Shown in pieces: positions 799-61,401 of a stretch of DNA of 64,000 nucleotides. Source of the stretch: Escherichia phage vB_EcoM_R5505; sequence record MK373786.1; one strand, written 5' to 3'. The translations under genes and the position numbers were made by a program. Numbering within the stretch: the stretch's first letter is position 1; the number at the start of each line of letters is the position of its first letter. The notes below the pieces were generated by a model that worked only from the letters and a program-made list of their open reading frames with translations, was not told the origin of the DNA and searched no databases.

Positions 799-2778
799 AT
801 GACTTTATTATCTCCGGGCATTGAGCTCAAAGAAACTACGGTTCAAAGCACCGTGGTTAATAACTCTACTGGTACAGCAGCTTTGGCCGGTAAATTCCAG
901 TGGGGTCCTGCTTTTCAGATTAAACAGGTTACAAATGAAGTAGATTTAGTTAATACTTTTGGTCAACCAACCGCTGAAACTGCTGACTATTTTATGTCTG
1001 CGATGAATTTCTTGCAGTACGGAAATGACTTACGAGTGGTTCGTGCTGTTGATAGAGATACCGCTAAAAACTCATCGCCAATTGCTGGTAATATTGAATA
1101 CACAATTTCTACCCCAGGTAGTAACTATGCGGTTGGAGATAAAATCACGGTCAAATATGTTTCAGATGATATTGAAACTGAAGGTAAAATTACTGAAGTA
1201 GACGCAGATGGAAAAATTAAGAAAATTAATATTCCTACTGCAAAAATTATCGCTAAAGCTAAAGAAGTCGGTGAATATCCAGCACTAGGTTCTAACTGGA
1301 CTGCGGAAATTTCTTCGTCTTCCTCTGGTTTAGCTGCAGTAATAACTCTTGGAAAAATTATTACTGATTCTGGTATTTTATTAGCTGAAATTGAAAATGC
1401 TGAAGCTGCAATTACAGCGGTTGACTTTCAAGCAAATCTCGAAAAATACGGAATTCCAGGAGTAGTAGCTCTTTATCCAGGCGAATTAGGCGATAAAATT
1501 GAAATTGAAATCGTATCTAAAGCTGACTACGCAAAAGGAGCTTCTGCATTACTCCCAATTTATCCGGGCGGTGGTACTCGTGCATCTACTGCTAAAGCAG
1601 TGTTTGGATATGGACCACAAACTGATTCACAGTATGCTATTATAGTTCGTCGTAATGATGCTATTGTTCAAAGCGTTGTTCTTTCAACTAAGCGTGGTGA
1701 AAAAGATATTTACGATAGTAACATCTATATCGATGACTTTTTCGCAAAAGGTGGTTCAGAATATATTTTTGCAACTGCGCAAAACTGGCCAGAAGGCTTC
1801 TCTGGAATTTTAACTCTGTCTGGTGGATTATCATCAAATGCTGAAGTAACAGCAGGAGATTTGATGGAAGCTTGGGACTTCTTTGCTGACCGTGAATCCG
1901 TTGATGTTCAACTGTTTATTGCGGGTTCTTGTGCCGGTGAATCTTTAGAAACAGCATCTACTGTCCAAAAACACGTCGTTTCAATTGGGGATGCTCGCCA
2001 AGATTGCTTAGTATTATGCTCTCCTCCGCGTGAAACTGTAGTTGGAATTCCTGTAACTCGTGCTGTTGATAACTTAGTCAATTGGAGAACTGCAGCAGGT
2101 TCATACACTGATAATAATTTTAATATCAGTTCAACCTATGCAGCAATCGACGGCAACTACAAATATCAGTATGACAAATATAATGATGTGAATCGTTGGG
2201 TTCCATTAGCAGCTGATATTGCTGGTTTATGCGCGAGAACCGATAACGTTTCTCAGACTTGGATGTCTCCAGCTGGTTATAATCGTGGCCAAATTTTGAA
2301 CGTTATTAAACTGGCTATTGAAACTCGCCAGGCTCAGCGCGACCGTTTATACCAAGAAGCTATCAACCCGGTAACTGGTACAGGTGGTGATGGTTACGTA
2401 TTGTATGGTGATAAAACAGCTACTTCTGTTCCTTCTCCGTTTGATCGTATTAACGTTCGTCGTCTGTTTAATATGTTGAAAACGAATATCGGACGTAGTT
2501 CAAAATATCGTTTGTTCGAATTAAACAATGCGTTTACTCGTTCATCATTCCGCACAGAAACTGCCCAGTACTTACAGGGAATTAAAGCTCTCGGTGGAAT
2601 TTATGAATATCGTGTAGTTTGCGATACAACAAATAACACTCCGTCAGTAATTGATAGAAATGAGTTTGTTGCAACATTCTACATCCAACCGGCGCGCAGT
2701 ATAAATTATATTACTTTGAATTTCGTCGCAACTGCTACCGGCGCAGATTTCGATGAGTTAACTGGTCTTGCAGGTTAA
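799..2778 (+). CDS. 18: Tail sheath protein
   Basis: 659 aa, same length and N-terminus (MTLLSPGIELKETT...) as T4 gp18; AGGA-type RBS; TATAAATA late promoter at 763-770. Confidence 0.95.
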   Translation: MTLLSPGIELKETTVQSTVVNNSTGTAALAGKFQWGPAFQIKQVTNEVDLVNTFGQPTAETADYFMSAMNFLQYGNDLRVVRAVDRDTAKNSSPIAGNIEYTISTPGSNYAVGDKITVKYVSDDIETEGKITEVDADGKIKKINIPTAKIIAKAKEVGEYPALGSNWTAEISSSSSGLAAVITLGKIITDSGILLAEIENAEAAITAVDFQANLEKYGIPGVVALYPGELGDKIEIEIVSKADYAKGASALLPIYPGGGTRASTAKAVFGYGPQTDSQYAIIVRRNDAIVQSVVLSTKRGEKDIYDSNIYIDDFFAKGGSEYIFATAQNWPEGFSGILTLSGGLSSNAEVTAGDLMEAWDFFADRESVDVQLFIAGSCAGESLETASTVQKHVVSIGDARQDCLVLCSPPRETVVGIPVTRAVDNLVNWRTAAGSYTDNNFNISSTYAAIDGNYKYQYDKYNDVNRWVPLAADIAGLCARTDNVSQTWMSPAGYNRGQILNVIKLAIETRQAQRDRLYQEAINPVTGTGGDGYVLYGDKTATSVPSPFDRINVRRLFNMLKTNIGRSSKYRLFELNNAFTRSSFRTETAQYLQGIKALGGIYEYRVVCDTTNNTPSVIDRNEFVATFYIQPARSINYITLNFVATATGADFDELTGLAG

Positions 2779-2783
2779 TTGAT

Positions 2784-3434
2784 ATGGGGCTTCGGCCCCT
2801 ATTCTCGAGGAATCAAGTGATTATTTCTAAATTTATTAAAGTGAAAATTGTACCATCAAATTTTAAACATTATCAGTCAAAGGGTTATAAATTAACACCT
2901 CTTGGAGCGGTTAAACACGGATTTAGGTATTATGAAATTGATGTTAAAGTTGAAGACATTAAAGGTAGTACCGCGTATGTAAAATGCCGTTGCGATAAAT
3001 GTGGAATTGAATATAACCAACGCATTGGAAGAAACACTGATATTTGTCGTGATTGCCGTCATAAAGATAAAATGCGTAATAATTCATATGGTTCCGCGAA
3101 TAAAGGAAAAACAGTAGAATGTATGCATGGCGCAAATCATCCAAGATGGAACCCAAATAAATCTGAAATGCGTGAATATATTTCATTGGTATATAAAGAA
3201 ACTCGTAAGCATAAGAAAATTTGGTCAAAATGGCCAAATGCTGATAAAATAGGAGTGTGCGGTACAAAAGGTGCTTACCAACTTGATCATAAGATATCTA
3301 TCAAATACGGTTTTGATAATTTAATTCCTGCTAAAATAATTGGCGGTATTAATAATTTAGAAATAATCACTTGGGAATCTAACCGAGAAAAATCCAAAAG
3401 AAATAGTGTAGATCTTTGGGATTTACTAGAATGA
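2784..3434 (+). CDS. HNH-family homing-endonuclease-like protein (free-standing, between genes 18 and 19)
   Basis: 216-aa ORF with Cys-rich CxC..CxxC..CxxC segment followed by an H-N-H-like motif (YQLDHKISIKYGFDN ... NLEIITWESNREKSKRN); first ATG (2784) lies inside the gene-18 terminator hairpin, so GTG at 2817 preceded by GAGG (2807-2810) is a plausible true start. Confidence 0.7.
   Translation: MGLRPLFSRNQVIISKFIKVKIVPSNFKHYQSKGYKLTPLGAVKHGFRYYEIDVKVEDIKGSTAYVKCRCDKCGIEYNQRIGRNTDICRDCRHKDKMRNNSYGSANKGKTVECMHGANHPRWNPNKSEMREYISLVYKETRKHKKIWSKWPNADKIGVCGTKGAYQLDHKISIKYGFDNLIPAKIIGGINNLEIITWESNREKSKRNSVDLWDLLE
2786..2799 (+). terminator. Hairpin GGGGCTTCGGCCCC after gene 18
   Basis: Perfect 5-bp GC stem with UUCG tetraloop just after the gene 18 stop. 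Confidence 0.6.
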
Positions 3435-3441
3435 TTCTAAA

Positions 3442-3459
3442 GGCCTGTTTCGGCAGGCC
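3442..3459 (+). terminator. Hairpin after the HNH gene
   Basis: ggcctg-tttcgg-caggcc, just after the HNH ORF stop. Confidence 0.55.
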
Positions 3460-3460
3460 A

Positions 3461-3468
3461 TATAAATA
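3461..3468 (+). promoter_or_regulatory. Late promoter TATAAATA (gene 19, distal)
   Basis: Exact octamer directly after the HNH-gene terminator hairpin. Confidence 0.65.
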
Positions 3469-3519
3469 CACTATATCCTTAATTCTTTAATTCTATATGC
3501 CCTAGGTTAAACATAGGGA

Positions 3520-3527
3520 TATAAATA
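3520..3527 (+). promoter_or_regulatory. Late promoter TATAAATA (gene 19, proximal)
   Basis: Exact octamer 15 nt upstream of gene 19 ATG. Confidence 0.7.
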
Positions 3528-3541
3528 CTACAGAGGCTAAT

Positions 3542-4033
3542 ATGTTTGTAGATGATGTAACACGCGCGTTTGAATCGGGTGATTTTGCGCGACCTAACTT
3601 ATTCCAAGTAGAAATTTCTTATCTTGGACAAAATTTTACGTTTCAATGTAAAGCCACTGCTTTACCAGCTGGTATTGTAGAAAAAATTCCAGTCGGATTT
3701 ATGAACCGTAAAATTAACGTAGCAGGCGATCGTACATTCGATGACTGGACTGTTACAGTAATGAACGATGAAGCTCATGATGCTCGTCAGAAGTTCGTTG
3801 ATTGGCAAAGCATTGCTGCGGGGCAAGGAAACGAAATTACTGGTGGAAAACCTGCAGAGTATAAAAAGAGCGCTATCGTTCGTCAATATGCTCGTGACGC
3901 TAAAACAGTAACAAAAGAAATTGAAATTAAAGGTCTGTGGCCTACTAACGTGGGTGAACTTCAATTAGATTGGGATTCAAACAATGAAATCCAAACATTT
4001 GAAGTAACTCTTGCTCTCGATTATTGGGAATAA
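3542..4033 (+). CDS. 19: Tail tube protein
   Basis: 163 aa, matches T4 gp19 length and N-terminus (MFVDDVTRAFESGDF...); two TATAAATA late promoters upstream. Confidence 0.94.
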   Translation: MFVDDVTRAFESGDFARPNLFQVEISYLGQNFTFQCKATALPAGIVEKIPVGFMNRKINVAGDRTFDDWTVTVMNDEAHDARQKFVDWQSIAAGQGNEITGGKPAEYKKSAIVRQYARDAKTVTKEIEIKGLWPTNVGELQLDWDSNNEIQTFEVTLALDYWE

Positions 4034-9426: not shown

Positions 9427-9441
9427 TCTTTGACGATTTAA

Positions 9442-9457
9442 GGGACCTTCGGGTCCC
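9442..9457 (+). terminator. Hairpin terminator after gene 23
   Basis: gggacc-ttcg-ggtccc followed by a T-rich tract. Confidence 0.7.
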
Positions 9458-9474
9458 TTTAGTTGTTTTTATGG

Positions 9475-9482
9475 TATAAATA
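9475..9482 (+). promoter_or_regulatory. Late promoter TATAAATA (gene 24)
   Basis: Exact octamer between the gene-23 terminator and gene 24. Confidence 0.75.
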
Positions 9483-9509
9483 AATCATATAAACCAAAAG
9501 GAAAGCGCA

Positions 9510-14248: not shown

Positions 14249-14277
14249 TAGATATATTTATTACATGGTATTTAGAC

Positions 14278-15789
14278 ATGACTGACATTAAAGTACATTT
14301 TTATGATTTTAGTCACGTGAGAATTGATTGTGAAGAAAGTACATTTCATGAACTCCGTGATTTCTTTAGCTTTGAAGCTGATGGGTATCGTTTTAATCCG
14401 AAATACAAATATGGCCACTGGGATGGACGAATCCGTCTTTTAGATTATAATCGTCTTCTTCCATTCGGCTTAGTCGGGCAAATTAAAAAGTTCTGTGATA
14501 ACTTTGGCTATAAAGCCTGGATTGACCCACAAATTAACGAAAAAGAAGAATTATCAAGAAAAGATTTTGATGAATGGCTTTCTAAATTAGAAATCTATTC
14601 AGGAAATAAAAGAATTGAACCACACTGGTATCAAAAAGATGCAGTGTTCGAAGGATTAGTTAATCGTCGTAGAATTCTTAATCTTCCAACATCCGCTGGT
14701 AAATCTTTAATTCAAGCTTTGCTTGCGCGATATTATTTGGAAAATTATGAAGGTAAAATTCTTATCATTGTTCCAACAACTGCTCTGACAACTCAGATGG
14801 CTGATGACTTCGTCGACTATCGTTTATTCAGTCATGCAATGATAAAGAAAATTGGTGGCGGAGCATCAAAAGATGATAAATATAAAAATGATGCACCAGT
14901 CGTTGTTGGTACATGGCAAACTGTAGTAAAACAACCGAAAGAATGGTTCTCACAGTTTGGAATGATGATGAATGATGAATGCCATCTTGCTACAGGAAAA
15001 AGTATTTCATCTATCATATCAGGTTTAAATAACTGCATGTTCAAATTTGGTCTATCAGGTTCATTACGTGATGGCAAAGCCAATATCATGCAGTATGTTG
15101 GAATGTTTGGTGAAATATTTAAGCCAGTAACGACTTCTAAATTAATGGAAGATGGACAAGTAACTGAGCTAAAAATTAATAGTATTTTTCTTCGCTATCC
15201 CGATGAGTTCACTACTAAATTAAAGGGAAAAACTTATCAAGAAGAAATAAAAATTATTACTGGGCTTAGTAAAAGAAATAAATGGATCGCTAAATTAGCT
15301 ATTAAGCTTGCGCAAAAAGATGAAAACGCTTTTGTCATGTTTAAACATGTATCGCATGGTAAAGCTATTTTCGATTTAATTAAAAATGAATACGATAAAG
15401 TTTATTACGTATCAGGGGAAGTTGATACCGAAACCCGCAATATAATGAAAACCTTAGCTGAAAATGGTAAAGGAATAATTATAGTAGCTAGTTATGGTGT
15501 ATTTTCTACTGGTATTTCAGTTAAAAATCTGCATCACGTTGTTTTAGCGCACGGTGTTAAATCAAAAATCATTGTATTACAAACAATCGGTCGTGTATTA
15601 CGTAAGCATGGTTCTAAGACAATAGCAACTGTCTGGGACCTCATAGATGATTGTGGCGTTAAGCCAAAATCTGCTAATACGAAAAAGAAATATGTTCATT
15701 TGAACTATCTTTTAAAACACGGCATTGATCGTATTCAGCGCTACGCAGATGAAAAATTTAATTACGTAATGAAAACAGTTAATTTATAA
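14278..15789 (+). CDS. uvsW: UvsW DNA/RNA helicase (SF2)
   Basis: 503 aa; Walker A-like PTSAGKS and DExH-like NDECH motifs; matches T4 UvsW. Confidence 0.93.
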   Translation: MTDIKVHFYDFSHVRIDCEESTFHELRDFFSFEADGYRFNPKYKYGHWDGRIRLLDYNRLLPFGLVGQIKKFCDNFGYKAWIDPQINEKEELSRKDFDEWLSKLEIYSGNKRIEPHWYQKDAVFEGLVNRRRILNLPTSAGKSLIQALLARYYLENYEGKILIIVPTTALTTQMADDFVDYRLFSHAMIKKIGGGASKDDKYKNDAPVVVGTWQTVVKQPKEWFSQFGMMMNDECHLATGKSISSIISGLNNCMFKFGLSGSLRDGKANIMQYVGMFGEIFKPVTTSKLMEDGQVTELKINSIFLRYPDEFTTKLKGKTYQEEIKIITGLSKRNKWIAKLAIKLAQKDENAFVMFKHVSHGKAIFDLIKNEYDKVYYVSGEVDTETRNIMKTLAENGKGIIIVASYGVFSTGISVKNLHHVVLAHGVKSKIIVLQTIGRVLRKHGSKTIATVWDLIDDCGVKPKSANTKKKYVHLNYLLKHGIDRIQRYADEKFNYVMKTVNL

Positions 15790-24643: not shown

Positions 24644-24696
24644 CCTCATGTTATGTCAGTAAGACTACTATAACACAACACGAGGGACTTGTAAAC
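24644..24696 (-). promoter_or_regulatory. Early promoter embedded in a stem-loop (53-bp element, copy 1)
   Basis: Minus strand GTTTACA-(17)-TGTTATAGT; 9-bp inverted repeat cctcatgtt/aacacgagg; 51/53 identical to 39971-40023. Confidence 0.6.
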
Positions 24697-26753
24697 TACA
24701 TCTTGAACTTTTTAGACATTCCGTTGATGTTAACCAAAGAAGCCAAGATTTGAGAAACTTCGTTTTCCTCTTCTTTTGATTCTTCTACAAGGAATTGATT
24801 AAATCCAGCCATTGGACGAACTTCACCAGTTTCCATTAAATGGTCGCCATCATATACTGATTCTTCTAATTGTTCAGAAGGAGGAACGATTGTACCTTCG
24901 ATTAGATACTTGTTATAAGCAGTTTCTTTCATAAAGTACGTACTTACTTTATTAATCTTCAGTAAAATTCCACGCGGTAGAATAACTTCAGCTTCTGATG
25001 GAAATCCTGATAAATGACCTGGAACGATAACTTTGATTCGCTCAGCTCCTTTAATTACCATACCCACGCTAGTTTCAGCATCTTCAATGGCATATGTAGA
25101 ATGACTACCCATATGCATTAAATCTTCTGCATCAACGGAACCTTCTCCTTCGCCAGAAAATACTGCGCCGGAATCATCTAGAGCCATATAGTTTTTACCA
25201 TGCTCACCGAAGATATTTGGTTTAAGTGATGTCGATACGAAGTTCTTGAAATAGAACATTTTGTTTTCAATGTTATGACGCAAAGTTTTAAAGGTAACTT
25301 CTTGTCCACGGTAAAGTGTAGTTCCTGGAGGAAGAACTGATCCTTTGGCAAAGGCAGAATCCAACGTCTCGATGTGCTTAATAGCTCGTTCCATATATTC
25401 TTCACGGGTAGAATCTGGTTTACCCAAAAGGAACGAGTTCATTTCAACATATGAATCTGCACAATAATCTTCAATTACATCAGATTCAGCTTGGGTTAAT
25501 CCTTTTGGAGTTACTTCGGTGCTTGCGTATTCATATGCCTGGGCAGCAGATTCATTAATCAATTTATAAATGCCATTCATGACAAATTGAATAATAGCTG
25601 TCTTTTCATCTGGCGTAGCTTTAGAACCTTTAACTAAATCATTAATAATTTTCTTAATAACATCAAAGCTATTAGAAATATTAATGTCAGCAAGATCGCT
25701 TAAAATTTTATCAGTTTTATAATCAAAGAATTCTTTATTCTTTAAATATTCTTGAGAACCTTGATATGTTATATCGCTCTGCAACTTGATAGATGGATCA
25801 CGTAAACGTGCATGGGCTAATGCAATATGATTTCGGAAGTTTTCTAGTTCATAATCGTTAGATTTAAAACGAGAAGCACTTCTCATACCACCGATAGCTC
25901 CTTTGCTAAAGTTTGAACCAATCTGGATAACCCCGGAGTTCATCGGACCTTCTGCTTTATATACCGGAACTTTAGATTCAAACTCTTGATATTTCTTGGC
26001 AGCGAAGCTATCACCCTGAAGTGAAGCATCAACAGTAGAATATTGAGCTTGTGCTGCTAATCGACGACTAATTTTAGTTTTCTGAATAACAGCTTGATCA
26101 GTGCGCTTATCATTTTCTAAAGCAATAGAAGCAGCAACAGCGACAGCTTTAGGAACAGCATTACCTGTTTTAACGTCTACATAAACATCACCAACCTTTG
26201 ATTCAACTTTTGTGAATAACTCAGTTGAAATAGGAGGTACACCTGGAATGTCTTCTAAATTGGCATTTTTACGGTAAACCATAATATATGCATACTTTTT
26301 ATCATAGTCCCAGATTTCCTTTAAAAGAACATATCGACCTGCTCCTTTAGTACGTACTAAACGGTCAGCAATAACTTGCATTTGACGAGCTGCGCCATTT
26401 GTTTTACTCTTTAGTACACGGAATAAGCACGCGTCAATTTTGTACTGCTTCATTGTTTGAAGAGCAGTATCAAAAACAGCATTAATGACGCCAATTGGAT
26501 TTCCACCCAAGTTTCTAAGCTTAACCAGCGATAATTTCTCGTTGACACCTATCATTACGATATGCATCATTTTATCGCCTGGTTTAACGTTTTTATTTGT
26601 ATCACCACCAGAGGTGTATGTACAAAATCTAAATCCAGGAAGAACGCTTTCTTCACCGGCTTGAATAGCAAAAATTTGAGGTATTTTATGCTTAGGATTT
26701 AAGTTAACAACCGGCGCCGAAGCGCCGTCAAATAATTCTGTAATAAGTTCCAT
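24696..26753 (-). CDS. Alt-family ADP-ribosyltransferase paralog (downstream copy)
   Basis: 685 aa; N-terminus MELITELFD... and C-terminal ART motifs (YRGQ, FVSTSL, EAEVILPRG) shared with the adjacent paralog; middle region divergent. Confidence 0.85.
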   Translation of the reverse strand: MELITELFDGASAPVVNLNPKHKIPQIFAIQAGEESVLPGFRFCTYTSGGDTNKNVKPGDKMMHIVMIGVNEKLSLVKLRNLGGNPIGVINAVFDTALQTMKQYKIDACLFRVLKSKTNGAARQMQVIADRLVRTKGAGRYVLLKEIWDYDKKYAYIMVYRKNANLEDIPGVPPISTELFTKVESKVGDVYVDVKTGNAVPKAVAVAASIALENDKRTDQAVIQKTKISRRLAAQAQYSTVDASLQGDSFAAKKYQEFESKVPVYKAEGPMNSGVIQIGSNFSKGAIGGMRSASRFKSNDYELENFRNHIALAHARLRDPSIKLQSDITYQGSQEYLKNKEFFDYKTDKILSDLADINISNSFDVIKKIINDLVKGSKATPDEKTAIIQFVMNGIYKLINESAAQAYEYASTEVTPKGLTQAESDVIEDYCADSYVEMNSFLLGKPDSTREEYMERAIKHIETLDSAFAKGSVLPPGTTLYRGQEVTFKTLRHNIENKMFYFKNFVSTSLKPNIFGEHGKNYMALDDSGAVFSGEGEGSVDAEDLMHMGSHSTYAIEDAETSVGMVIKGAERIKVIVPGHLSGFPSEAEVILPRGILLKINKVSTYFMKETAYNKYLIEGTIVPPSEQLEESVYDGDHLMETGEVRPMAGFNQFLVEESKEEENEVSQILASLVNINGMSKKFKM

Positions 26754-26756
26754 GAT

Positions 26757-28847
26757 TTATCCTTGAACGAACTTGTAAGGCATGTTTGTAATATCTATGC
26801 AAGACGCAATAATTCCAAGAGATGATTCTACTTTCTGTTTAACATTTGATGAAACAAATGATGCAAAGTCAACTCTATCTTCTATATCACCTGTCATTGC
26901 AACTACTTCGCCGGTTTCCATTAAACGGTCACCGTCATAAATTACCGATTCGGTGAGTTCTTCTGTGGTCATAACTTCAGCTTGAATGAGTTTTGTATTA
27001 TTAGACGTGGTTCCGTCATTATTAGAAGCATCAGTTATTTTATTAACTTTAACCATCAATCCGCGCGGTAGAATAACTTCAGCTTCTGTTGCTATTCCTA
27101 GACTTCCTGGATATACAACATTAACTTTATGTGCGCCGTCAATTGCCCATCCTATTTGAACTTTAACGTATTCAGGATTTTCTTTATACGCTCTTATTTC
27201 GTTTGGATTAATAGTTATTCCTTCTTCATTTTTATCAACTGTCAATTCATTACGAGCTTCTGGTTCTAAAAGACCAATACCAGCATGTGTAATTCCAAAA
27301 CGCCCAAAAATGATAGGAGTTAAAGAAGTAGATACAAAATTTCTGAAATAGAACACTTTATTTTTAACTAGCGCTTCGTATATAGGAGCAGTCATACTTT
27401 GAGCACGATAAACTGTAATGCCTTCCGGTATGCGGTCACCATTTTCAAAAGCTGAATCTAAATTATTTATAGCAGATTCAATTTCTTTTTCACTCATTAC
27501 ATCATATCGTTCTGGATTGTAACGACCTAAAAGAAGATTATTGATGTCAGTATATCCTGAACCACAATACTCTCTAATGCCGCGCTTTTGTGATGGAGTA
27601 TATTTAGAACCATCACGAGCAATAGTAATATCAATCATTGGACCTGCACCAATTCCGGAAAAGCTATAAATCATTCGTTTGAGGAATTTAGTTTTTGCTG
27701 CGTTCCAGGAATTTTTAGTTATTTCTTCCCAGACTTCATCTGGTTGCCCTTTACGAGTTTTATTATGTTTATCAAGCCAATTATCTTTATATTCTTCAAA
27801 GAATTTATTAATAGCTGCTGCGTATTTCTCTAAACATTTTATTGAAGTAGTTGGTTCATTTTTTATCGCGTTAAAAATTACATCTTTAATTTTTTCGGAA
27901 ACTTCATCAACCTCACTTTTTGAAAAGAATTTATAGTCATAGTGAAGTTCATTCGCAGTTCCTTCGGCAATAATTTTTGCTGCCTTAGTTTTAGAAGCTA
28001 ATGAATTAATTCCAAGCTTCATTTCTTCTGCTTCGGGAATTAAAGGAGCGGTAGCGGGTTTATTGAAATTAGCTGCGGTAGATTCATACTTCTGAAATAA
28101 TTCACTTTCAAATCTAGAAGATTCCAATGACTGACTTTGTGCAATTGCTCTACGGGAAATTTTAACTTTAACGATTACAGCTTGATCAGAACGTTTATCA
28201 TTTTCTTGCGCAATAGATGCTGCAATTGCCTCATTTTTAGTTACTTGAGCTCCAGTATCTTTATTGATATAAACATCACCGACCTTCGATTCAACTTTAG
28301 TAAAGAGCTCGGTACTAATTTCCGGAACCCCTGGAATGTCTTCTAGTGATACATTTTTGCGATGTATAAGAATATATGCATACTTTTTATCGTAATCCCA
28401 GAGTTCCTTAAGAAGGACGTATCTGCCACCTGAACGACTACGGATAAGTCTATCAGCAATAACCTGAATTTGTCGAGCTTGACCAGCGGTTTTAGACTTA
28501 AGAATACGAAGCATACAGGCATCAATTTTATACTGACGCATTGTTTGCATTGCAACAGTAAAAACTGAATTGATATAATTAATTGGGCTTGAACCAAGAC
28601 CTTTCAATTTAGCAATTGAACCTTTAGCAGTTAATGTAAAAGGAACAATATGCATCATTTTATCGCCCATCTTTAAATCGCGATTAGTATCACCTCCAGA
28701 TGTATAGGTACATAAACGAAAGCCTGGTTGTTCAATTGCATCATCAACATGAACTGAAAAAATTTGTGGTATTTTCTTCTTTGGGTTTAAGTTTGTAATC
28801 GGAAGAGTAGTATCTTCGTCAAATAATTCTGTAATGAGTTCCATCAT
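26757..28847 (-). CDS. alt: Alt-family ADP-ribosyltransferase (upstream copy, probably the alt orthologue)
   Basis: 696 aa (695 from the second Met); R-S-ExE ART motifs YRAQ, FVSTSL, EAEVILPRG; minus-strand TATAAATA at 28868-28875 upstream; which paralog is canonical alt is not certain. Confidence 0.85.
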   Translation of the reverse strand: MMELITELFDEDTTLPITNLNPKKKIPQIFSVHVDDAIEQPGFRLCTYTSGGDTNRDLKMGDKMMHIVPFTLTAKGSIAKLKGLGSSPINYINSVFTVAMQTMRQYKIDACMLRILKSKTAGQARQIQVIADRLIRSRSGGRYVLLKELWDYDKKYAYILIHRKNVSLEDIPGVPEISTELFTKVESKVGDVYINKDTGAQVTKNEAIAASIAQENDKRSDQAVIVKVKISRRAIAQSQSLESSRFESELFQKYESTAANFNKPATAPLIPEAEEMKLGINSLASKTKAAKIIAEGTANELHYDYKFFSKSEVDEVSEKIKDVIFNAIKNEPTTSIKCLEKYAAAINKFFEEYKDNWLDKHNKTRKGQPDEVWEEITKNSWNAAKTKFLKRMIYSFSGIGAGPMIDITIARDGSKYTPSQKRGIREYCGSGYTDINNLLLGRYNPERYDVMSEKEIESAINNLDSAFENGDRIPEGITVYRAQSMTAPIYEALVKNKVFYFRNFVSTSLTPIIFGRFGITHAGIGLLEPEARNELTVDKNEEGITINPNEIRAYKENPEYVKVQIGWAIDGAHKVNVVYPGSLGIATEAEVILPRGLMVKVNKITDASNNDGTTSNNTKLIQAEVMTTEELTESVIYDGDRLMETGEVVAMTGDIEDRVDFASFVSSNVKQKVESSLGIIASCIDITNMPYKFVQG

Positions 28848-37379: not shown

Positions 37380-38591
<1,212 letters not shown>

Positions 38592-38595
<4 letters not shown>

Positions 38596-41641: not shown

Positions 41642-42820
41642 TTAAAAATATTTTTTAAAACTCATCATAACTTTATCATCAACATCATTATCAATCTGTG
41701 CAACAAGATAAGATGACAGTTCTACTTCTTGTGGCGCGGATTGAACATTATCAGAATTAAGATATTCACGAATCCAAGGATATGGGTGTTTAACCGGAGC
41801 ATCGGTAATTGGGCATGGAAGACCACACTGTTTCATACGAGATACAGTTAAGTAATCAATAAAGCTCCACATGCTATTTGTATTTAATCCAGGAACATCG
41901 CCATCTTTAAATAAATGAACTGCCCAATCTTTTTCTTGGCGGTTAACTTCCATGAAAATATCAACTGCTTCTTGTTCACACTCTTGAGCAATTTTAACCC
42001 ATTCATCGCCATCAGTGCCAAGTTGAAGTTGACGAATAATATATTGGGTGCCTTTAAGGTGAAGCTGCTCATCACGTGCAATGAACTTCATAATCTTGGC
42101 ATTACCTTCCATGATTTCCATGTTCTTATGGAAGTTAAAGGTACACGCGAAAGATACATAAAAACGAATAGCTTCTAAGGCATTAATAACGTGCAAACAG
42201 AGGTAAAGAGATTTCATTAGCTCACGCTTCCAATATGTCTCATGCTCAATAGCATCTTCAATAACGTCTTCGTCTGCATTAATTTCTTTTTGGTATTCGA
42301 TATCAGCTTTAGCGTTTTCCCAATAACGAGTTTTAATCAGAACATCATCATAATAACGTCCAATGGATTCAGCACGTTTCATAATAGCTTCATCTAATAC
42401 AATTTCATCAAATACCTTCGATGGATCAGTATAAAGATTTCGCATGATATGTGTATATGAACGGCTGTGAATAGTTTCACTAAAAGTCCATGTAGCAACC
42501 CATGTATCAAGGCTTGGGTCTGAAATTAATGACATAAGTACAGCAGACGGTGCACGACCCTGAATGCTATCCAAAAGTGATTGATACTTCAGGTTATTAG
42601 TAAAAATATTTTGCTGATACTGAGGAAGCTTATTAAACTGTGCAGCATCCATCATTAAGTTTACTTCTTCAGGACGCCAGAAAAATGATAATTGCTTTTC
42701 GGTCAAATCTTCAAAAACTTTATGGCGTTGAATATCATAACGCGCAATACCAAGACCTGAACCAAAAAACATAGGTTCTTTTAAAACATCAACTGGATTT
42801 GTATTAAAAACTGTGCTCAT
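41642..42820 (-). CDS. nrdB: Ribonucleotide reductase small subunit (uninterrupted)
   Basis: 392-aa contiguous ORF; ferritin-like diiron R2 protein; no intron interruption. Confidence 0.93.
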   Translation of the reverse strand: MSTVFNTNPVDVLKEPMFFGSGLGIARYDIQRHKVFEDLTEKQLSFFWRPEEVNLMMDAAQFNKLPQYQQNIFTNNLKYQSLLDSIQGRAPSAVLMSLISDPSLDTWVATWTFSETIHSRSYTHIMRNLYTDPSKVFDEIVLDEAIMKRAESIGRYYDDVLIKTRYWENAKADIEYQKEINADEDVIEDAIEHETYWKRELMKSLYLCLHVINALEAIRFYVSFACTFNFHKNMEIMEGNAKIMKFIARDEQLHLKGTQYIIRQLQLGTDGDEWVKIAQECEQEAVDIFMEVNRQEKDWAVHLFKDGDVPGLNTNSMWSFIDYLTVSRMKQCGLPCPITDAPVKHPYPWIREYLNSDNVQSAPQEVELSSYLVAQIDNDVDDKVMMSFKKYF

Positions 42821-42871
42821 AAATTTTCCACTTAGTTAATAGATAGTGACTCGTCCATGAGTCAAATTATA

Positions 42872-45136
42872 TCATAATTTACAGGATGAACAATCTTCAG
42901 CTTTTGGAGTTTCTATTTCATAATCATCAGTACCAGAACCATCACGGGTATTATGATAATAGAAATTTTTTCCGCCAAAATACCAGAAATACAAAAGGTC
43001 ATCAATCATTATTGACATTGGAACCTTGCCTTTAGGGAAGATTTGGGGGTCATAGTATGTATTCGCTGAAGCTGATTGACAAACCCATTTCAGCATAATA
43101 GCTACCTGCGTAAGATAAGGTTTATTACCTTTCTTAGCTAATTTCCATGTATAATCATAGAGGTCTATGTTATGCTCAATATTGGGCACGACTTGATTAA
43201 AGGAGCCCTCTTTTGATTCTTTAACAGAGACTGGTCCACGTGGAGGCTCGATACCGTTTGTACTGTTAGAAACTTGGGAAGATGACTCACATGGCATAAG
43301 TGCTGATAATGTGCTATTACGGATGCCAAAGAGCTTAAGGTCTTCCCGCAGCGACGACCAGTCACAAACGTATTTTGGAGCTGCGATTTGGTCAATCTTT
43401 TTATTGTACCAGTCGATAGGTAATTCGCCTCGAGACCAACGAGTGTCTGAATAATATTCGCAAGGTCCTTTTTCTTTGGCGAGCTTAATGGATGCTTTAA
43501 TGAGTCCATACTGTAATCTCTCAAATAGTTCATGTGTTAAATCGTTAGCATCTTCATAAGAAGCAAAGTTACTTGCCAGCCAAGCTGCATAGTTGGTAAC
43601 ACCTACACCGAGGTTACGACGCTTTTTAGCTTTTTCTGCTTCAGGAACTGGATATCCTTGATAATCCAAAAGATTATCAAGAGCACGAACTTGAACTTCT
43701 GCCAATTCATTAATTTTATCTTGGTCTTGCCAGTCAAAATTATCTAGTACGAATGCAGAGAGAGTACACAATCCAATTTCAGCATCAGGACTGTTCACAT
43801 CATTTGTTGGAATAGCAATTTCACAGCACAAGTTACTCTGACGAATAGGTGCCTTTTCACGAATAAACGGAGTATAGTTATTCGTATTATCAATGAACTG
43901 CACATAAATCCTTGCTGTTCCTGAACGTTCAGTCATGAGCAATTCAAATAGTTCACGAGCTTTAATACGCTTTTTGCGAATATTAGGGTCTTTTTCTGCT
44001 GCTTCGTATAATTCACGGAAACGGTCTTGGTCTTTAAAATAAGAATAATAAAGCTCGCCACCCATTTCATGCGGGCTGAACAAAGTAATGTAATCATTCT
44101 TTCCGAATCGTTCCATCATCAAATCATTCAGCTGAACACCATAATCCATATGACGAATGCGGTTTTCTTCTACGCCTTTGTTATTTTTCAAAACGAGAAG
44201 ATTTTCAACTTCCAAATGCCAAATAGGATAATAAGCAGTAGCAGCGCCGCCACGAATTCCACCCTGTGAACATGATTTAACAGCAGTCTGAAAATGTTTC
44301 CAAAAAGGAATAACACCGGTATGGCGTACTTCACCCATGCCAATCTTAGAACCTTCGGCACGAATCATACCAACGTTAATACCAATTCCAGCGCGTTTAG
44401 AGATATATTCAACAATTGAAGCAGAAGCCTTATTGATAGACTTCAGCGAATCACCTGCCTCAATAACAACACATGAACTAAACTGTCGAGTCGGAGTACG
44501 GCAACCAGCCATAATAGGAGTTGGCAATGAAATCTGTCGAGTAGATACTGCTTCATAAAAACGGATAACATGTTTTAGTCTATCAACAGGTTCATCTTGA
44601 TGCAATGCCATTCCAATAGCCATAAATGCAAACTGCGGAGTTTCATAAATTTGACCAGTGGTTTTATCTTTAACTAGATATTTTTCTTTTAATTGCATCG
44701 CCCCGGAATAAGTAAATTCCATATCCCGCTCGTGCTTAATTTTTGATTCTAAAAATGTAATTTCTTCTGCTGAATATTTTGACAATAATTCAGGGTCATA
44801 TTTACCTGCATTTACACAATAAGAAATATGGTCAATAAATGAACGTGGTTCATACTGCCCATAAACATGCTTACGAAGAGCAAACATTAAACAGCGTGCA
44901 GCTACATATTGATAATCAGGCTCTTCAACCGAAATAGAATTCGCAGCAGCCTTAATGACAATAGTCTGAATATCATCAGTTGTCATTCCATCACGGAGAT
45001 AAGATTTAATGTTTTCATATAATTCATAAGGATCTACTGATGTTCCTTCAGCTGCCCAAGATAAAACTTTAATAATTTTTTGCGGGTCAAAGCTCTGAGA
45101 AACACCACTACTTTTGATAACATTAATTAATTGCAT
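42872..45136 (-). CDS. nrdA: Ribonucleotide reductase large subunit
   Basis: 754 aa as T4 NrdA; only 51 bp separate it from nrdB. Confidence 0.95.
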   Translation of the reverse strand: MQLINVIKSSGVSQSFDPQKIIKVLSWAAEGTSVDPYELYENIKSYLRDGMTTDDIQTIVIKAAANSISVEEPDYQYVAARCLMFALRKHVYGQYEPRSFIDHISYCVNAGKYDPELLSKYSAEEITFLESKIKHERDMEFTYSGAMQLKEKYLVKDKTTGQIYETPQFAFMAIGMALHQDEPVDRLKHVIRFYEAVSTRQISLPTPIMAGCRTPTRQFSSCVVIEAGDSLKSINKASASIVEYISKRAGIGINVGMIRAEGSKIGMGEVRHTGVIPFWKHFQTAVKSCSQGGIRGGAATAYYPIWHLEVENLLVLKNNKGVEENRIRHMDYGVQLNDLMMERFGKNDYITLFSPHEMGGELYYSYFKDQDRFRELYEAAEKDPNIRKKRIKARELFELLMTERSGTARIYVQFIDNTNNYTPFIREKAPIRQSNLCCEIAIPTNDVNSPDAEIGLCTLSAFVLDNFDWQDQDKINELAEVQVRALDNLLDYQGYPVPEAEKAKKRRNLGVGVTNYAAWLASNFASYEDANDLTHELFERLQYGLIKASIKLAKEKGPCEYYSDTRWSRGELPIDWYNKKIDQIAAPKYVCDWSSLREDLKLFGIRNSTLSALMPCESSSQVSNSTNGIEPPRGPVSVKESKEGSFNQVVPNIEHNIDLYDYTWKLAKKGNKPYLTQVAIMLKWVCQSASANTYYDPQIFPKGKVPMSIMIDDLLYFWYFGGKNFYYHNTRDGSGTDDYEIETPKAEDCSSCKL

Positions 45137-45670: not shown

Positions 45671-46527
45671 ATTGCCATTTTCCCTTTAATTGCTGGATGC
45701 GATTCATAATTTTCAAGGATAAAATCTTTCGGTTTCATGTATTCAGTTAACCAGTAAAGCTGTGTTTCGGTGTCACAATTTCCAAACTCTATAGGCCAAT
45801 CAATTTTAAGTTCACACAGTTCTTTAGGCTCACGACGTAAAATTTCTTTACATTGCTCAGTATGATTCATATAGATGTGAGTATTACCACCAGAAAATAT
45901 CAAATCTCCTGGGATAAGATTACACATCTTAGCCACAATATGCGTCAAGGCAGCGTACGAGGCAATGTTGAATGGCAAGCCCAAGAAAACATCTACACTT
46001 CTTTGGTACCATTGTAAATCAAGATAACCATTACGCACATTAAACTGATAGAACATATGACAGGGCGGTAATGCCATTTGATTGATTTCAGCTGGATTCC
46101 ATGCTGAAACGATTTGACGTCGATCAGTTGGTAATTTTTTAATACGATCAATAGTTTCAACTAATTGATCCACACCACCGAAATCACGCCATTGTTTACC
46201 GTATATAGGACCAAGTTCACCACTATGATATCCTAGGTCTTTAGCCTGGTTTTCATAGTTATCGTCCCAAATAGTTTTACCTTGAATAAGACTACCATGA
46301 GTGCGAAGACGTAAATCATTAACATTGGTAGAACCGGAAATAAACCATAGAAGCTCAGCAATGCATGCATTCCAGGCGAGCTTCTTAGTTGTTACTGCAG
46401 GAAAACCTTTAGTTAAATCCCAGCGTAATTTAGTACCGAACAAAGCAATTGTTCCTGTGCCTGTTCGGTCATCGGTTTCATAACCATTTTCAAAAATGTC
46501 TTTAATTAAATCTTGGTATTGTTTCAT
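45667..46527 (-). CDS. td: Thymidylate synthase (uninterrupted)
   Basis: 286 aa as T4 TS; active-site PPCH; single contiguous ORF. Confidence 0.95.
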
Positions 46528-46571: not shown

Positions 46572-46931
46572 TTAATACGGTTTAGCATCAAATTTTCTCT
46601 CAATTTCAGGCGTGAAATATAATTCTTTACCGCGTTTGGAAAAGCGACCAATAATATGATAATTATTCTCATCAAACGTGATATTACCAATATCCATAGC
46701 TTTCAACCAAATATCGATATTTCTATCCAGCTTTATGTCAAAATTCCAATACGGAGAACTATTACCGAAAATACTGCAAGCGGATTCAGTGAAACAACTG
46801 CTATAAATCTTGTCTTTAGGAACTACTAATTGATAGACACCTTTAATAAACTGAGGACCCTGCCACTTTGGCTGTTTCGCGTCTTTTTCTAATAGAATAG
46901 GGTAATAATTAAAATTCATATTTTCCGCCAC
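46572..46931 (-). CDS. Hypothetical protein inserted between frd and td
   Basis: 119-aa ORF with no recognisable motif, in an interval where T4 frd and td are remembered as overlapping. Confidence 0.6.
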   Translation of the reverse strand: MAENMNFNYYPILLEKDAKQPKWQGPQFIKGVYQLVVPKDKIYSSCFTESACSIFGNSSPYWNFDIKLDRNIDIWLKAMDIGNITFDENNYHIIGRFSKRGKELYFTPEIERKFDAKPY

Positions 46932-50030: not shown

Positions 50031-50097
50031 TTTTATTTCCTTTTTAATTTAATTAACAGTTGGTGCTATGACGATGTATGACCTCATAGCTGGTCAG
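50031..50097 (-). promoter_or_regulatory. Gene 32 autoregulatory translational operator (pseudoknot plus unstructured A/U-rich tract)
   Basis: Minus strand reads GACCAGCTATGAGGTCATACATCGTCATAGC (interleaved GACC/GGTC and CTATGA/TCATAG stems) then UUAAUUAAAUUAAAAAGGAAAUAAAA-AUG. Confidence 0.65.
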
Positions 50098-50104
50098 TGA
50101 GATA

Positions 50105-50128
50105 ATTATAATCTATTTATAATAAGCA
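50105..50128 (-). promoter_or_regulatory. MotA-dependent middle promoter (gene 32)
   Basis: Minus strand reads TGCTTA-(12 nt)-TATAAT, overlapping the late octamer. Confidence 0.55.
50114..50121 (-). promoter_or_regulatory. Late promoter TATAAATA (gene 32)
   Basis: Plus TATTTATA in the 59-32 intergenic region. Confidence 0.6.
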
Positions 50129-50129
50129 A

Positions 50130-58125: not shown

Positions 58126-61100
58126 ATGGCTACTTTAAAACAAATACAATTTAAAAGAAGCAAAACCGCAGGTGCACGTCCTGCTGCTTCAGTATTAGCC
58201 GAAGGTGAATTGGCTATAAACTTAAAAGATAGAACAATTTTTACTAAAGATGATTCAGGAAATATCATTGACTTAAGCATTTCTGCTGGTGGTAATATCA
58301 GTGGAAATATCACTCAAACTGGTGATTATACACAGACTGGAAAATTTAATTTAATTGGTCCGCAAATTGTAGCAAGCGGTGGATATATTGAGTTTAATTA
58401 TCGTACTACTGGAAGTGGGGCTTGGTCCGGTCAACATACTGCGAAAGCTCCAATTTTTGTAGATTTAAGCTCAGCTACTTCCACATCTGAATATAATCCT
58501 ATAATTAAACAGCGCTTTAAAGATGGAACTTTTTCATTAGGTACTTTAGTTTCTGAAGGTTCGTTGAAGATTCATTATATCAATGAATCTGGCGATTCGA
58601 AATATTGGACGTTTCGACGTGACGGCGGATTTACTGTTGACGGTGGAGGTTTAGCAGTATCAGGAGGTAGTATAACTACATCTGGAAATATTGCAGCTAT
58701 TGGAAATATTACTTCGCCTCAGATTAATACTAAAAATATTATTTTAGATACAAAAGCATTTGGACAATACGATTCGCAATCATTAGTTCAATATGTTTAT
58801 CCTGGAACAGGTGAAGAAAATGGTATAAACTATCTTCGTAAAGTTCGAGCTAAATCAGGCGGAACCATTTACCATGAATTAGCTTCTGCGCAAACCGGAA
58901 AAAGTGATGAACTTTCTTGGTGGACTGGTAATACAGCCGTTAATAAACAAATGGGTCTTCGTAATGATGGGGCTTTAGTATTACGACGCTCACTCGCAAT
59001 TGGTACAATTACAACAGATGAAAACATTAATAACTACGGCTCCGCTGGAGCAATGGGCGAATGTTATATAGTTATCGGTGATGCATCAACAGGCTTATCA
59101 TACAAAAAAACTGGAGTATATGATTTAGTTGCTAGTGGTCTTTCTTTAGCATCTATTACTCCTGATAGTTTCCGTAGTACCCGTAAAGCGATTTTTGGTC
59201 GTTCCGAGGACCAAGGTACAACATGGATTATGCCTGGAACCAACGCCGCGTTTTTATCGGTTCAAACACAAGCTGATGAAAACACTGCTGGAGACGGCCA
59301 GACGCATATTGGCTATAACTCAGGCGGAAAAATGAACCACTATTTCCGTGGTAAAGGCAAAACTAATATTAATACTCAAGAAGGCATGGAAGTTAACCCG
59401 GGTATTTTGAAATTGGTAACTGGCTCTAATAATGTAATGTTTTATGCTGATGGCGGTATTACATCTGTTAAGCAGCTTTCAATATATAATGGCATATATT
59501 TAGCAGCTAATAATTCTACTGCTGGGCTAACATTCGCTCCAACTACTACAATTGATGGTACTAAGCAAATTTTGTGGGAAGGCGGTACTCGTGCTGGGCA
59601 GAATAAAAGCTATGTAACTGTTAAAGCATGGGGTAATTCATTTAACGCATCTGGCGATCGTAATCGTGAAACGGTTTTTGAAGTAGCTGATGGACAAGGA
59701 TATTATTTTTATTCACAGCGTGTGGCTCCAAGTGGCTCTGAAACTACTGGGCCTGTTGTAACCCAGTTCAATGGACAAGTTAATGCTAGAGGAAGTATTA
59801 TTACTGACGGAAGTTTTAAAGTTAATGGATTAAGCACTTTAGTCGGTAATGTTACCATGTCTAATGGTTTGTTTGTCCAAGGTGGTTCTTCTATTACTGG
59901 ACAAGTAAAAATTGGTGGAACTGCTGATGCATTAAGAATTTGGAATGCCGAATACGGTGCTATTTTCCGTCGCTCAGAAACAGCATTACATATTATCCCG
60001 ACTCCTAAAGATGCCGGTGAAAGTGGTGGAATAAGTAATCTCCGCCCACTTAGTATTAGTCTTAATAATGGTATGGTACAAATGCGCCATTCTGTTACGT
60101 TAGGCGATGATGGCGCTGGAGGTAATATGATTACTGTGGACAACGATACCAAACTTGTTGTTGTTACTAGTAATAGTCGCATTTCTCCTAATTACCGTAT
60201 GCAGGTAGGACAAGCAGCTTATATTGATGCTGAATGTACTGACACAGTTCGCCCGGCTGGTGCAGGGTCTTTTGCTTCACAAAATAATGAAAACGTTCGT
60301 GCTCCATTCTATATGAATATTAATCGTACAGATACAAGTACTTACGTTCCTATTTTGAAACAACGATATGTCCAAGGAAACAGTTGTTATTCTCTGGGAA
60401 CTCTAATTAACGGCGGTAACTTCAGAGTTCATTATCATGAAGGCGGCGATGGCGGTTCGACTGGCGCTATTATAAAGGATTTAGGTTGGGAATTTAACAA
60501 AAATGGTGATTTTATATCTCCTAAGCGTGTTTCTGCTGGTGGTTCAGTTTATTTAGGTACAGACGGCAATATTACAGGTGGTTCTGGCAATTTTGCTAAT
60601 TTAAACAGTACAATTGAATCACTTAAAACCGATATTGTATCGAGTTACCCAATCGGTGCTCCTATTCCATGGCCAACGGATACTCCTCCTGACGGTTACG
60701 CTATTATGGAAGGCCAGACTTTTGATAAGTCTGCATACCCAAAATTGGCTATGGCTTACCCATCTGGCGTAATTCCAGATATGCGCGGGCAAACTATTAA
60801 AGGTAAACCAAGTGGTCGAGCTGTATTAAGCGCAGAAGCCGATGGTGTTAAGGCTCATAGCCATAGTGCATCGGCTTCAAGTACTGACTTGGGTACTAAA
60901 ACTACGTCGAGTTTTGATTATGGTACTAAGACGACAAGTAGCTTTGACTATGGCACTAAGACTAGCAATACCACAGGTAACCACTCTCATACTGTAAGCG
61001 GTACTACGAGTTCTGCTGGTGCACACCAACATGCGCGCTCAGGTCCTCAGATACAAGCCGGCATACCCAATAACATATTCTATGACGGATATAATAGTGT

Positions 61101-61401
61101 AGGTGCAAACGCCAACGCTAAATTCACTGGAACCGTGAACGGTGCTACTGCAGGGTCGAATATAGCCAAAACTTCTTCAGACGGTGCTCATACTCATACT
61201 TGGTCTGGTACTACAAGCACTACAGGTAACCATGCTCACACAGTAGGTATTGGTGCTCATACCCATACTGTAGGTATCGGTGCTCATACCCACACGGTAG
61301 CAATTGGCTCGCATGGTCATACTATCACTGTAAATAGTACAGGTAATACAGAAAACACGGTTAAAAACATTGCTTTTAACTATATCGTTCGTTTAGCATA
61401 A
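58126..61401 (+). CDS. 37: Long tail fiber distal subunit with receptor-binding tip
   Basis: 1091 aa; C-terminal His-box array ([33 protein letters not shown] x2, SHGHTI) and terminal ...[11 protein letters not shown] as in T4-type gp37. Confidence 0.92.
60892..60951 (+). repeat. Tandem 30-bp repeat in gene 37 encoding [10 protein letters not shown] twice
   Basis: The two units encode the same decapeptide but differ at about 9 of 30 nucleotides; a third diverged unit follows. Confidence 0.7.
61245..61298 (+). repeat. Tandem 27-bp repeat in gene 37 encoding GIGAHTHTV twice (His-box)
   Basis: ggtattggtgctcatacccatactgta / ggtatcggtgctcatacccacacggta. Confidence 0.7.

Follow-up and report, generated by a model that had tools for sequence, protein, structure and literature searches.

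What is the short open reading frame (ORF) that stands between the tail sheath gene (18) and the tail tube gene (19) of Escherichia phage vB_EcoM_R5505 (MK373786.1), and how is it maintained there? The stretch analysed here (the window, 64,000 nucleotides) is collinear with positions 97.7–162.2 kb of T4 (blastn) and is a Tequatrovirus (T4-like) segment. An earlier reading made from the sequence alone (the sequence-only reading) had taken the ORF for a free-standing HNH endonuclease gene. The ORF is an optional free-standing gene placed precisely in the 18–19 gap. With a rough probability of 0.6 it is an HNH-type homing endonuclease gene of the free-standing kind, with weak and late expression, whose predicted nuclease would let it spread or persist by cutting empty 18–19 regions.

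The frame is open, as had been read, from 2784 to 3434 on the + strand, and gives 216 aa if counted from its first ATG. T4 has no gene here, as the sequence-only reading had it: the T4 18–19 spacer is 116 bp long and reads TAA-TACGGTGC-ATTCTAAA-GGCCTGTTTCGGCAGGCC-ATATAAATA... Comparison of the 18–19 junction with ORF-less relatives defines the insertion site, a cassette of ~655 bp (2779–3434) that runs from stop to stop and stands where the T4 spacer has ~9 bp (TACGGTGCA). From ATTCTAAAGG on, the window spacer equals that of T4. The locus is made up as follows:

2779–3434, + strand: cassette without T4 counterpart, from just past the gene-18 stop to the stop codon of the ORF itself.
2817–3434, + strand: the gene, with GTG start and TGA stop, 205 aa; PHROG 5104; 'gp19.1' in the VR7 record.
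799–2778, + strand: gene 18 (tail sheath), the neighbour on the upstream side, from which the late transcript comes; 97.6% identity to T4 over the stretch.
763–770: late promoter motif TATAAATA of gene 18.
3442–3459, + strand: native hairpin of the 18–19 spacer, the same in T4 directly after gene 18; outside the insert.
3461–3468 and 3520–3527, + strand: two native late-promoter motifs TATAAATA upstream of gene 19, the same in T4.
3542–4033, + strand: gene 19 (tail tube), downstream neighbour.

Since the window matches T4 from ATTCTAAAGG on, the 3442–3459 hairpin is spacer native to T4, and so are the two late promoters. The ORF had been described as bracketed by its own hairpins and followed directly by the late promoters of gene 19. 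Both hairpins are present (2786–2799 and 3442–3459) and the promoter motifs do follow; the insert brings the upstream hairpin, and the downstream hairpin and the promoters belong to T4. The downstream hairpin has a 7-bp stem and a UUCG loop (−12.8 kcal/mol; none of 200 shuffles was as stable). A scan for intrinsic terminators (hairpin plus T-run) gave no sites, there being no T-run after either hairpin, and an Rfam scan of 2600–3700 matched no family. Over 2300–4000 the window shares 98.9% identity with phage AV122 and 98.8% with RB3.

The ORF is a real gene under purifying selection, because the ratio of nonsynonymous to synonymous substitution (dN/dS) between alleles is 0.08–0.20 (Nei-Gojobori) and the family of homologues is large. 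The family profile found 6,623 cluster representatives at E <= 0.001, 1,465 of them at E <= 1e-10, and 207 of the 235 tblastn matches in the phage collection span at least 80% of the protein. A hidden Markov model of the family, run against the six-frame ORFs of the window, found no further member there.

PHROG 5104 ('unknown function', 2e-90) is the sole strong family match of the protein. Two alignments were used, with residues numbered on the 205-aa protein: A1 holds 34 close sequences (the window protein and its 33 closest relatives) and A2 holds 38 distant sequences, 25–48% identical to the window protein. AlphaFold2 (AF2) predicts two domains with a linker of low confidence between them (residues ~86–105); the mean predicted local distance difference test score (pLDDT) is 86. 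Three stretches of the gene encode the conserved parts:

2991–3056, + strand: zinc-ribbon motif C59-x2-C62...C77-x2-C80 in the N-terminal domain (residues ~1–85); cysteines invariant or near-invariant, AF2 pLDDT ~90.
3129–3149, + strand: G-x-x-H-P-R-W motif with invariant G105 and W111, opening the C-terminal domain.
3279–3392, + strand: predicted HNH (H-N-N variant) beta-beta-alpha-metal core, with beta1 ending in D157-H158, N180 before beta2, and N189 and K192 in the helix.

The Cys-rich segment, likened earlier to a zinc knuckle, is borne out as a CxxC-14-CxxC cluster conserved across homologues, and the N-terminal zinc-ribbon domain is presumed to be the DNA-recognition module. Weak matches to DUF4379 ('treble clef') occur in 12 of the 34 A1 members (best E = 8e-4), the window protein not among them. 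As no match rises above the Pfam gathering score, membership of DUF4379 was rejected.

The C-terminal block of A1 has G105, W111, Q155, D157, H158, S161, N180, L181, W186, N189 and K192 invariant; among the 38 distant relatives only D157, H158, N180 and N189 are invariant, and K192 is kept in at least 90%. In the AF2 model strand 154–158 ends in D-H, strand 181–185 comes after N180 and helix 186–192 holds N189, with pLDDT >90 at these residues. The model thus places a beta-hairpin and an alpha-helix as HNH/His-Me finger nucleases have them, with His ending beta1, Asn before beta2 and a metal-ligand Asn in the helix, and the predicted topology at these residues is the beta-beta-alpha-metal of HNH nucleases in its H-N-N variant. 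Of the H-N-H motif read earlier, the D-H...N...N pattern stands and is invariant; the second metal-binding His is an Asn, and no curated HNH profile recognises it. Distant members carry NUMOD3 modules (4 of 38, best E = 1e-8) and give weak Pfam matches in 3 of 38 (PF01844 in two, E = 0.002; HNH_4 in one, E = 0.004). They also match 'homing endonuclease' PHROGs (phrog_12131 with 6 members, 2e-28; phrog_3339; phrog_314), six 'HNH endonuclease' PHROGs and 'endonuclease VII'. On the invariant D-H...N...N residues upon a predicted beta-beta-alpha fold, together with the matches of distant members to HNH, homing endonuclease and NUMOD3 families, the C-terminal half is very probably an HNH-superfamily nuclease domain, of a subfamily not yet in curated libraries.

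The distribution of the gene is sporadic. The whole query with the insert (window-type allele) is covered in 47 of 671 matching Tequatrovirus-like records, and the T6-type allele is found in 70 of 603, so that ~17–19% of Tequatrovirus-like sites are occupied and the rest empty. Universal presence at the junction, which would make the ORF a core gene, is ruled out by these figures. The empty 116-bp site is identical across 10 Tequatrovirus loci (T4 and nine others), and occupied gaps measure 752–763 bp (window, RB3, sb1, T6 and others). The same alternation recurs in Karamvirus/Gelderlandvirus-like phages (L009 and L010 empty with 119–123 bp; CkP1 and STP4-a occupied) and in Dhaka/Gaprivervirus-like phages (L012, L014 and L036 empty; VR26 and VR7 occupied). 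The Karamvirus sequence is ...cagTGA|TCATAG... where the site is empty and ...caaTAA-[cassette]-aagTGA|TCATAG... where it is occupied, the cassette being again bounded by stop codons. Mosigvirus-like and more distant sampled loci are empty (L008, L015–L018, L032–L034, L038–L039). Sporadic presence with precise empty sites in close relatives is what a free-standing homing endonuclease gene presents.

There are also signs of horizontal movement. Between the window and T6, gp18 and gp19 are 99% identical and the ORFs only 51%, and the difference is spread unevenly along the protein (N-domain, residues 13–127; C-part, residues 128–205):

Window versus T6: residues 13–127, 28%; residues 128–205, 81%.
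Window versus CkP1 (Karamvirus): residues 13–127, 65%; residues 128–205, 69%.
Window versus Mokit (Acinetobacter): residues 13–127, 46%; residues 128–205, 50%.
T6 versus VR7: residues 13–127, 53%; residues 128–205, 65%.

Two N-domain classes (I, that of the window; II, that of T6) cross genera, and the nuclease half and the 5' leader track phage lineage. This pattern suggests that module exchange inside the gene was repeated, in at least two phage lineages. Phage sb1 is a recombinant, with an ORF body of window type, a leader of T6 type and the gene-18 haplotype of T4. Such combinations show recombination in and around the gene, and would fit homing with co-conversion. The signal of horizontal movement is present but partial, the C-terminal part tracking phage lineage. 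A metagenomic pair in A1 (P0012/P0024) has the same ends and unrelated N-domain middles, as in T6 (L002) versus the window.

The start and the expression of the gene were read differently before, and the signals concerned are the following:

2784–2786, + strand: upstream in-frame ATG, its G opening the hairpin stem; taken not to be a functional start.
2786–2799, + strand: insert-borne C(UUCG)G hairpin GGGGC-UUCG-GCCCC, ~−11 kcal/mol, with no T-run behind it.
2807–2810, + strand: Shine-Dalgarno GAGG, 6 nt upstream of GTG 2817, read from sequence.

The sequence-only reading had the protein start at ATG 2784, structurally masked in the terminator hairpin of gene 18, with expression only by terminator read-through. 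The ATG is indeed in frame, a stable hairpin begins with its G, there is a weak AGG 9 nt before it, and some gene callers use it (cluster P0001, 216 aa; the sb1 coding sequence). This model can nevertheless hardly be right. The 2786–2799 hairpin belongs to the insert, has no T-run and is not the native hairpin of gene 18, which in T4 is that of 3442–3459. The ATG is replaced by GTG in loci L030, L031 and L042, and in L030 and L042 a one-base insertion shifts the upstream codon out of frame with the main ORF intact. The Karamvirus, Gelderlandvirus and Gaprivervirus homologues have the GTG start without the upstream ATG, the GTG being kept in four genera, and those of Acinetobacter, Serratia and Sinorhizobium phages also lack the upstream codon; all start MII or MIT. 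An N-terminus MII(S/T)K or a near variant stands at the position of GTG 2817 in all 33 aligned homologues, the GAGG lies at optimal spacing, and the RB3 and T6 records place the start at the GTG. On this comparison ATG 2784 is very unlikely as a start, and the masked start appears to be an artefact of choosing the first ATG. Given the conserved start at GTG 2817, the protein has 205 aa and not 216.

The insert-borne hairpin looks to be under selection, because Karamvirus and Gelderlandvirus cassettes keep it as GGGCC-UUCG-GGCCC, a compensatory change of the stem. It might act as a 3' stabiliser of the gene-18 message, replacing the displaced native hairpin, or curb read-through into the putative nuclease gene. 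A second hairpin that would sequester the Shine-Dalgarno and the GTG (2807–2827) is weak and not beyond shuffles (z = −1.25). As TATAAATA is not found in 2779–2817 of the window, expression of the ORF must come from the gene-18 late transcript (TATAAATA at 763). Homologues in VR7, CHI14 and Mokit have their own TATAAATA just upstream. In Mokit (L021, ~2415–2450) and VR7 (L022, ~2372–2396) the motif lies inside a strong hairpin, unlike in the window; that of VR7 has −14.5 kcal/mol (z = −3.0). Known T4 homing endonuclease genes have middle or late promoters and never early ones, according to a 2010 review of T4 mobile elements (PMC2988022).

A homing endonuclease gene at this locus would work as follows. 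The protein would have two domains, a small N-terminal beta/zinc-ribbon module that recognises DNA and a C-terminal HNH (H-N-N variant) beta-beta-alpha-metal nuclease. Its minimal cassette would sit right behind the gene-18 stop codon and leave the hairpin and the late promoters of gene 19 untouched. Having no promoter of its own in this phage, it would be transcribed late, by read-through of the gene-18 message past the stable, non-terminating UUCG hairpin, and its translation would begin at a weak GTG preceded by a good Shine-Dalgarno. When a related phage that lacks the ORF infects the same cell, the enzyme would nick or cut that phage's 18–19 region, and repair by recombination with the ORF-carrying genome would bring the gene across, nearby markers included.

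Results on the fold, the slot, the pattern of divergence and the target weigh against a homing endonuclease. As to the fold, the sequence-only reading had named the lack of an HNH-family match in profile searches as a reason to give up its call, and no direct match was found: Pfam gave only sub-threshold zinc-ribbon matches for the protein and NCBIfam nothing meaningful. Pfam and NCBIfam searches of the 33 closest relatives gave no significant HNH (a single HNH_4 match in one member, E = 0.078). Searches of PDB by sequence and profile (phmmer, profiles) returned no HNH, just chance or zinc-ribbon matches such as mS66 and AccD, and Foldseek of the full model against PDB gave only noise, mostly antibody Fabs at E > 1. 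PADLOC found no nuclease or defence family, and precomputed Pfam domains are absent from all 43 homologues of a 5.8-billion-protein search.

The missing curated HNH model and the Asn in place of the classical second metal-binding His would suit a zinc-ribbon DNA- or RNA-binding protein with a non-cleaving HNH-like scaffold (e.g., a late regulator of genes 18 and 19), or else a degenerate remnant of a homing endonuclease. Phage homing endonuclease genes often decay, I-TevIII of T4 being an example (PMC2988022). I-TevIII is marked defective in the T4 annotation too. Neither a non-cleaving protein nor a remnant agrees well with D-H, N, N and K kept over 38 sequences that are only 25–48% identical, or with a dN/dS well below 1, unlike that of a decaying gene; the near full length of most tblastn matches also speaks against a remnant. 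H-N-N variants are active nucleases in other families of the HNH superfamily. Both versions are very improbable.

As to the slot, all 14 homologues with checked context (33–67% identity) sit between the sheath and tube genes. They comprise T6, CkP1 (Karamvirus), STP4-a (Gelderlandvirus), Mokit (Acinetobacter, Twarogvirinae), VR7, VR26, CHI14 (Winklervirus), AS-zj (Aeromonas, Emmerichvirinae), phiM7 (Sinorhizobium, Emdodecavirus) and the metagenomic loci L045–L049, which hold three distinct proteins with 34–41% identity to that of the window. The gene lies directly against gene 19 or overlaps it in Mokit, CHI14, AS-zj, L045, L047 and L049. Scans of JGI metagenomes and of IMG/VR with gp19 gave no more than 15 loci each, a number too small for testing an association at population level. 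Leaving aside the two N-domain classes, moreover, divergence of the ORF roughly follows that of the phages, and T-even phages recombine freely anyway, which tempers a homing reading of the exchange.

A fixed slot, packing against gene 19 and lineage-tracking divergence are also compatible with a gene long resident there and frequently lost. Such an accessory nuclease ('gene 19.1'), belonging to the morphogenesis operon of T4-type phages, would pass on mostly by vertical descent and serve the phage, possibly in packaging-linked DNA processing like that of the terminase-associated HNH of cos phages, or in late attack on competing phages or host DNA. It would explain why all lineages examined, from Tequatrovirus to phages of Aeromonas, Acinetobacter and Sinorhizobium and three metagenomic T4-like contigs, have the gene in one and the same slot, why it is packed in an operon-like way in six of these loci, why ORF identity drops roughly along with gp18 and gp19 identity, and why purifying selection is strong. 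It explains less well that ~80% of Tequatrovirus-like records, T4 included, are without the gene and show no visible compensation; from this absence it follows that the gene is dispensable. Two alleles with just 28% N-domain identity segregate amid 99% identical flanks, each with closer kin in other genera, and the NUMOD3 and homing-endonuclease PHROG matches of distant members point elsewhere. T4-type phages, furthermore, package by headful and need no cos-cutting HNH. A resident nuclease is thus possible though unlikely.

A related and decidedly unlikely view is that of a 'site-locked' nuclease lineage in the sheath/tube slot across the T4 superfamily (from enterobacterial, Acinetobacter and Aeromonas Straboviridae to Sinorhizobium Emdodecavirus), or of a nuclease domesticated for competition between phages. 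A site-locked lineage may persist by swapping one of two N-terminal recognition modules, the nuclease half being lineage-specific, and could, if real, reveal the way in which a homing endonuclease acquires a new target while staying at its locus.

As to the target of the proposed homing endonuclease, no cleavage site can be named. The candidate was a stretch in the 3' part of gene 18:

2694–2727, + strand: substitution island in gene 18, with ~11–13 changes versus T4, 51–85 nt before the stop codon.

The changes are all silent in the window, and one amino acid is changed in T6. The island has three haplotypes (T4, window/RB3 and T6) amid flanking DNA that is >99% identical. Among the 15 loci compared first, it was diverged at 5 of 5 occupied and 3 of 10 empty sites. 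Chimeric queries found the ORF with a T4-like island in sb1, sb3 and Ec_YwIITB1 (read base by base in sb1 only), and ~116 empty-site records carry the window haplotype. Genomes with and without the ORF show no consistent difference in the island, and these occupied sites with the T4 haplotype and empty sites with that of the window do not support it as a cleavage or immunity site in the form first supposed. It is linked to the presence of the ORF without determining it and is not a clean immunity marker; it could be a recognition site of the endonuclease or a recombination scar. The simplest alternative is that the insertion, which replaces 9 bp of spacer, could itself destroy the target.

Elsewhere in the window, blastn against T4 shows that segD, segE, the nrdB intron with I-TevIII, nrdB.1 with mobE, the td intron with I-TevI, and segG are missing (window 9437–9498, 14264–14284, 42144–42145, 42820–42876, 45975–45980 and 50093–50129). 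The phage is poor in classical T4 homing endonuclease genes, yet has the 18/19 gene. Two full-length tandem paralogues of alt (ADP-ribosyltransferase) lie at 24696–26753 and 26757–28847 (− strand, 685 and 696 aa); T4 has one alt and an alt.-1/alt.-2 relic. A 119-aa ORF with GTG start (46572–46931, − strand) lies in a ~400-bp td–frd segment without T4 counterpart, and a 103-aa ORF (38284–38595, − strand) in a ~300-bp pseT–pseT.1 segment missing from T4. The distal tail-fibre gene 37 (58271–61258) is just 75–79% identical to T4 or unalignable, the usual host-range mosaic.

If the prediction holds, the locus adds one more T-even homing site, in the late structural operon, and one more HNH subfamily missed by domain libraries (no Pfam match; 'unknown function' in PHROGs). 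The gene marks a recombination boundary beside two genes widely used as phylogenetic markers, and its positional fidelity with two swapped N-domains makes it a compact natural model for the way in which free-standing endonucleases retain or switch targets. The understanding of homing endonucleases is unchanged by this modest addition, and its value for specialist follow-up is limited to positional fidelity and N-domain swapping.

Records label the gene variously. It is mostly a 'hypothetical protein' in GenBank, with 'homing endonuclease' in ADUt and vB_Ro_M12a and 'type II restriction endonuclease' in Roth21 and Roth67; the VR7 record has 'gp19.1 hypothetical protein', noted as similar to T6 gp19.1. 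The gene is mis-annotated in reference genomes such as the T6 RefSeq, where the T6 allele (L002 3034–3639, NC_054907.1) is a 'putative head morphogenesis protein'; in the T6 record AP018814.1, gene 19 is a 'hypothetical protein'. Both T6 labels are annotation-transfer errors. No description of the gene, its fold or its fixed position at 18/19 was found in literature searches and in term searches of PMC2988022, PMC2993671 and PMC10448857. The sequence of the gene is thus already deposited and the gene itself undescribed, the free-standing HNH-type homing endonuclease being a known kind.

Among known systems, small stand-alone HNH nickases (Geobacter Gme HNH, 4h9d; phage GVE2 HNH, 5h0o) are likewise phage-associated and encoded near morphogenesis genes. 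They differ in having ~90–100 residues and no zinc-ribbon N-domain. HNH proteins of the Gme/GVE2 type assist terminase in cos cleavage, whereas the ORF is dispensable, belongs to a phage that packages by headful and has gene 18 between itself and gene 17. The ORF was also set against the terminase-associated HNH of the HK97 gp74 type, a required partner of cos-phage terminase encoded beside the terminase genes, and does not answer to that description. With I-TevIII (RB3) and I-HmuI (SPO1) it shares a phage HNH core combined with small modular DNA-binding units, some of its distant relatives having NUMOD3. Unlike these, it is not intronic, and the window protein has no NUMOD and a zinc ribbon weakly like DUF4379. 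In I-HmuI the nuclease is at the N-terminus.

The sequence-only reading had also thought of the Mob family. To T4 MobE no sequence similarity was found (hhalign of the 38-sequence profile, probability 0.1% over 6 columns, MobE being the one Mob protein compared), and the ORF has no curated HNH match and an order with the DNA-binding module first and the nuclease last. The 18/19 slot in the late operon is not among the known T4 homing sites of the 2010 review (Table 1, PMC2988022). The hairpin of the ORF sits upstream of the Shine-Dalgarno and leaves it free. With T-even mobA–E, of which MobE is characterised, the ORF shares the plan of a small optional gene, intergenic between essential genes and in the same orientation as its neighbours, without an early promoter, with a hairpin near its 5' end, sporadic among close relatives and with a predicted HNH-type core.

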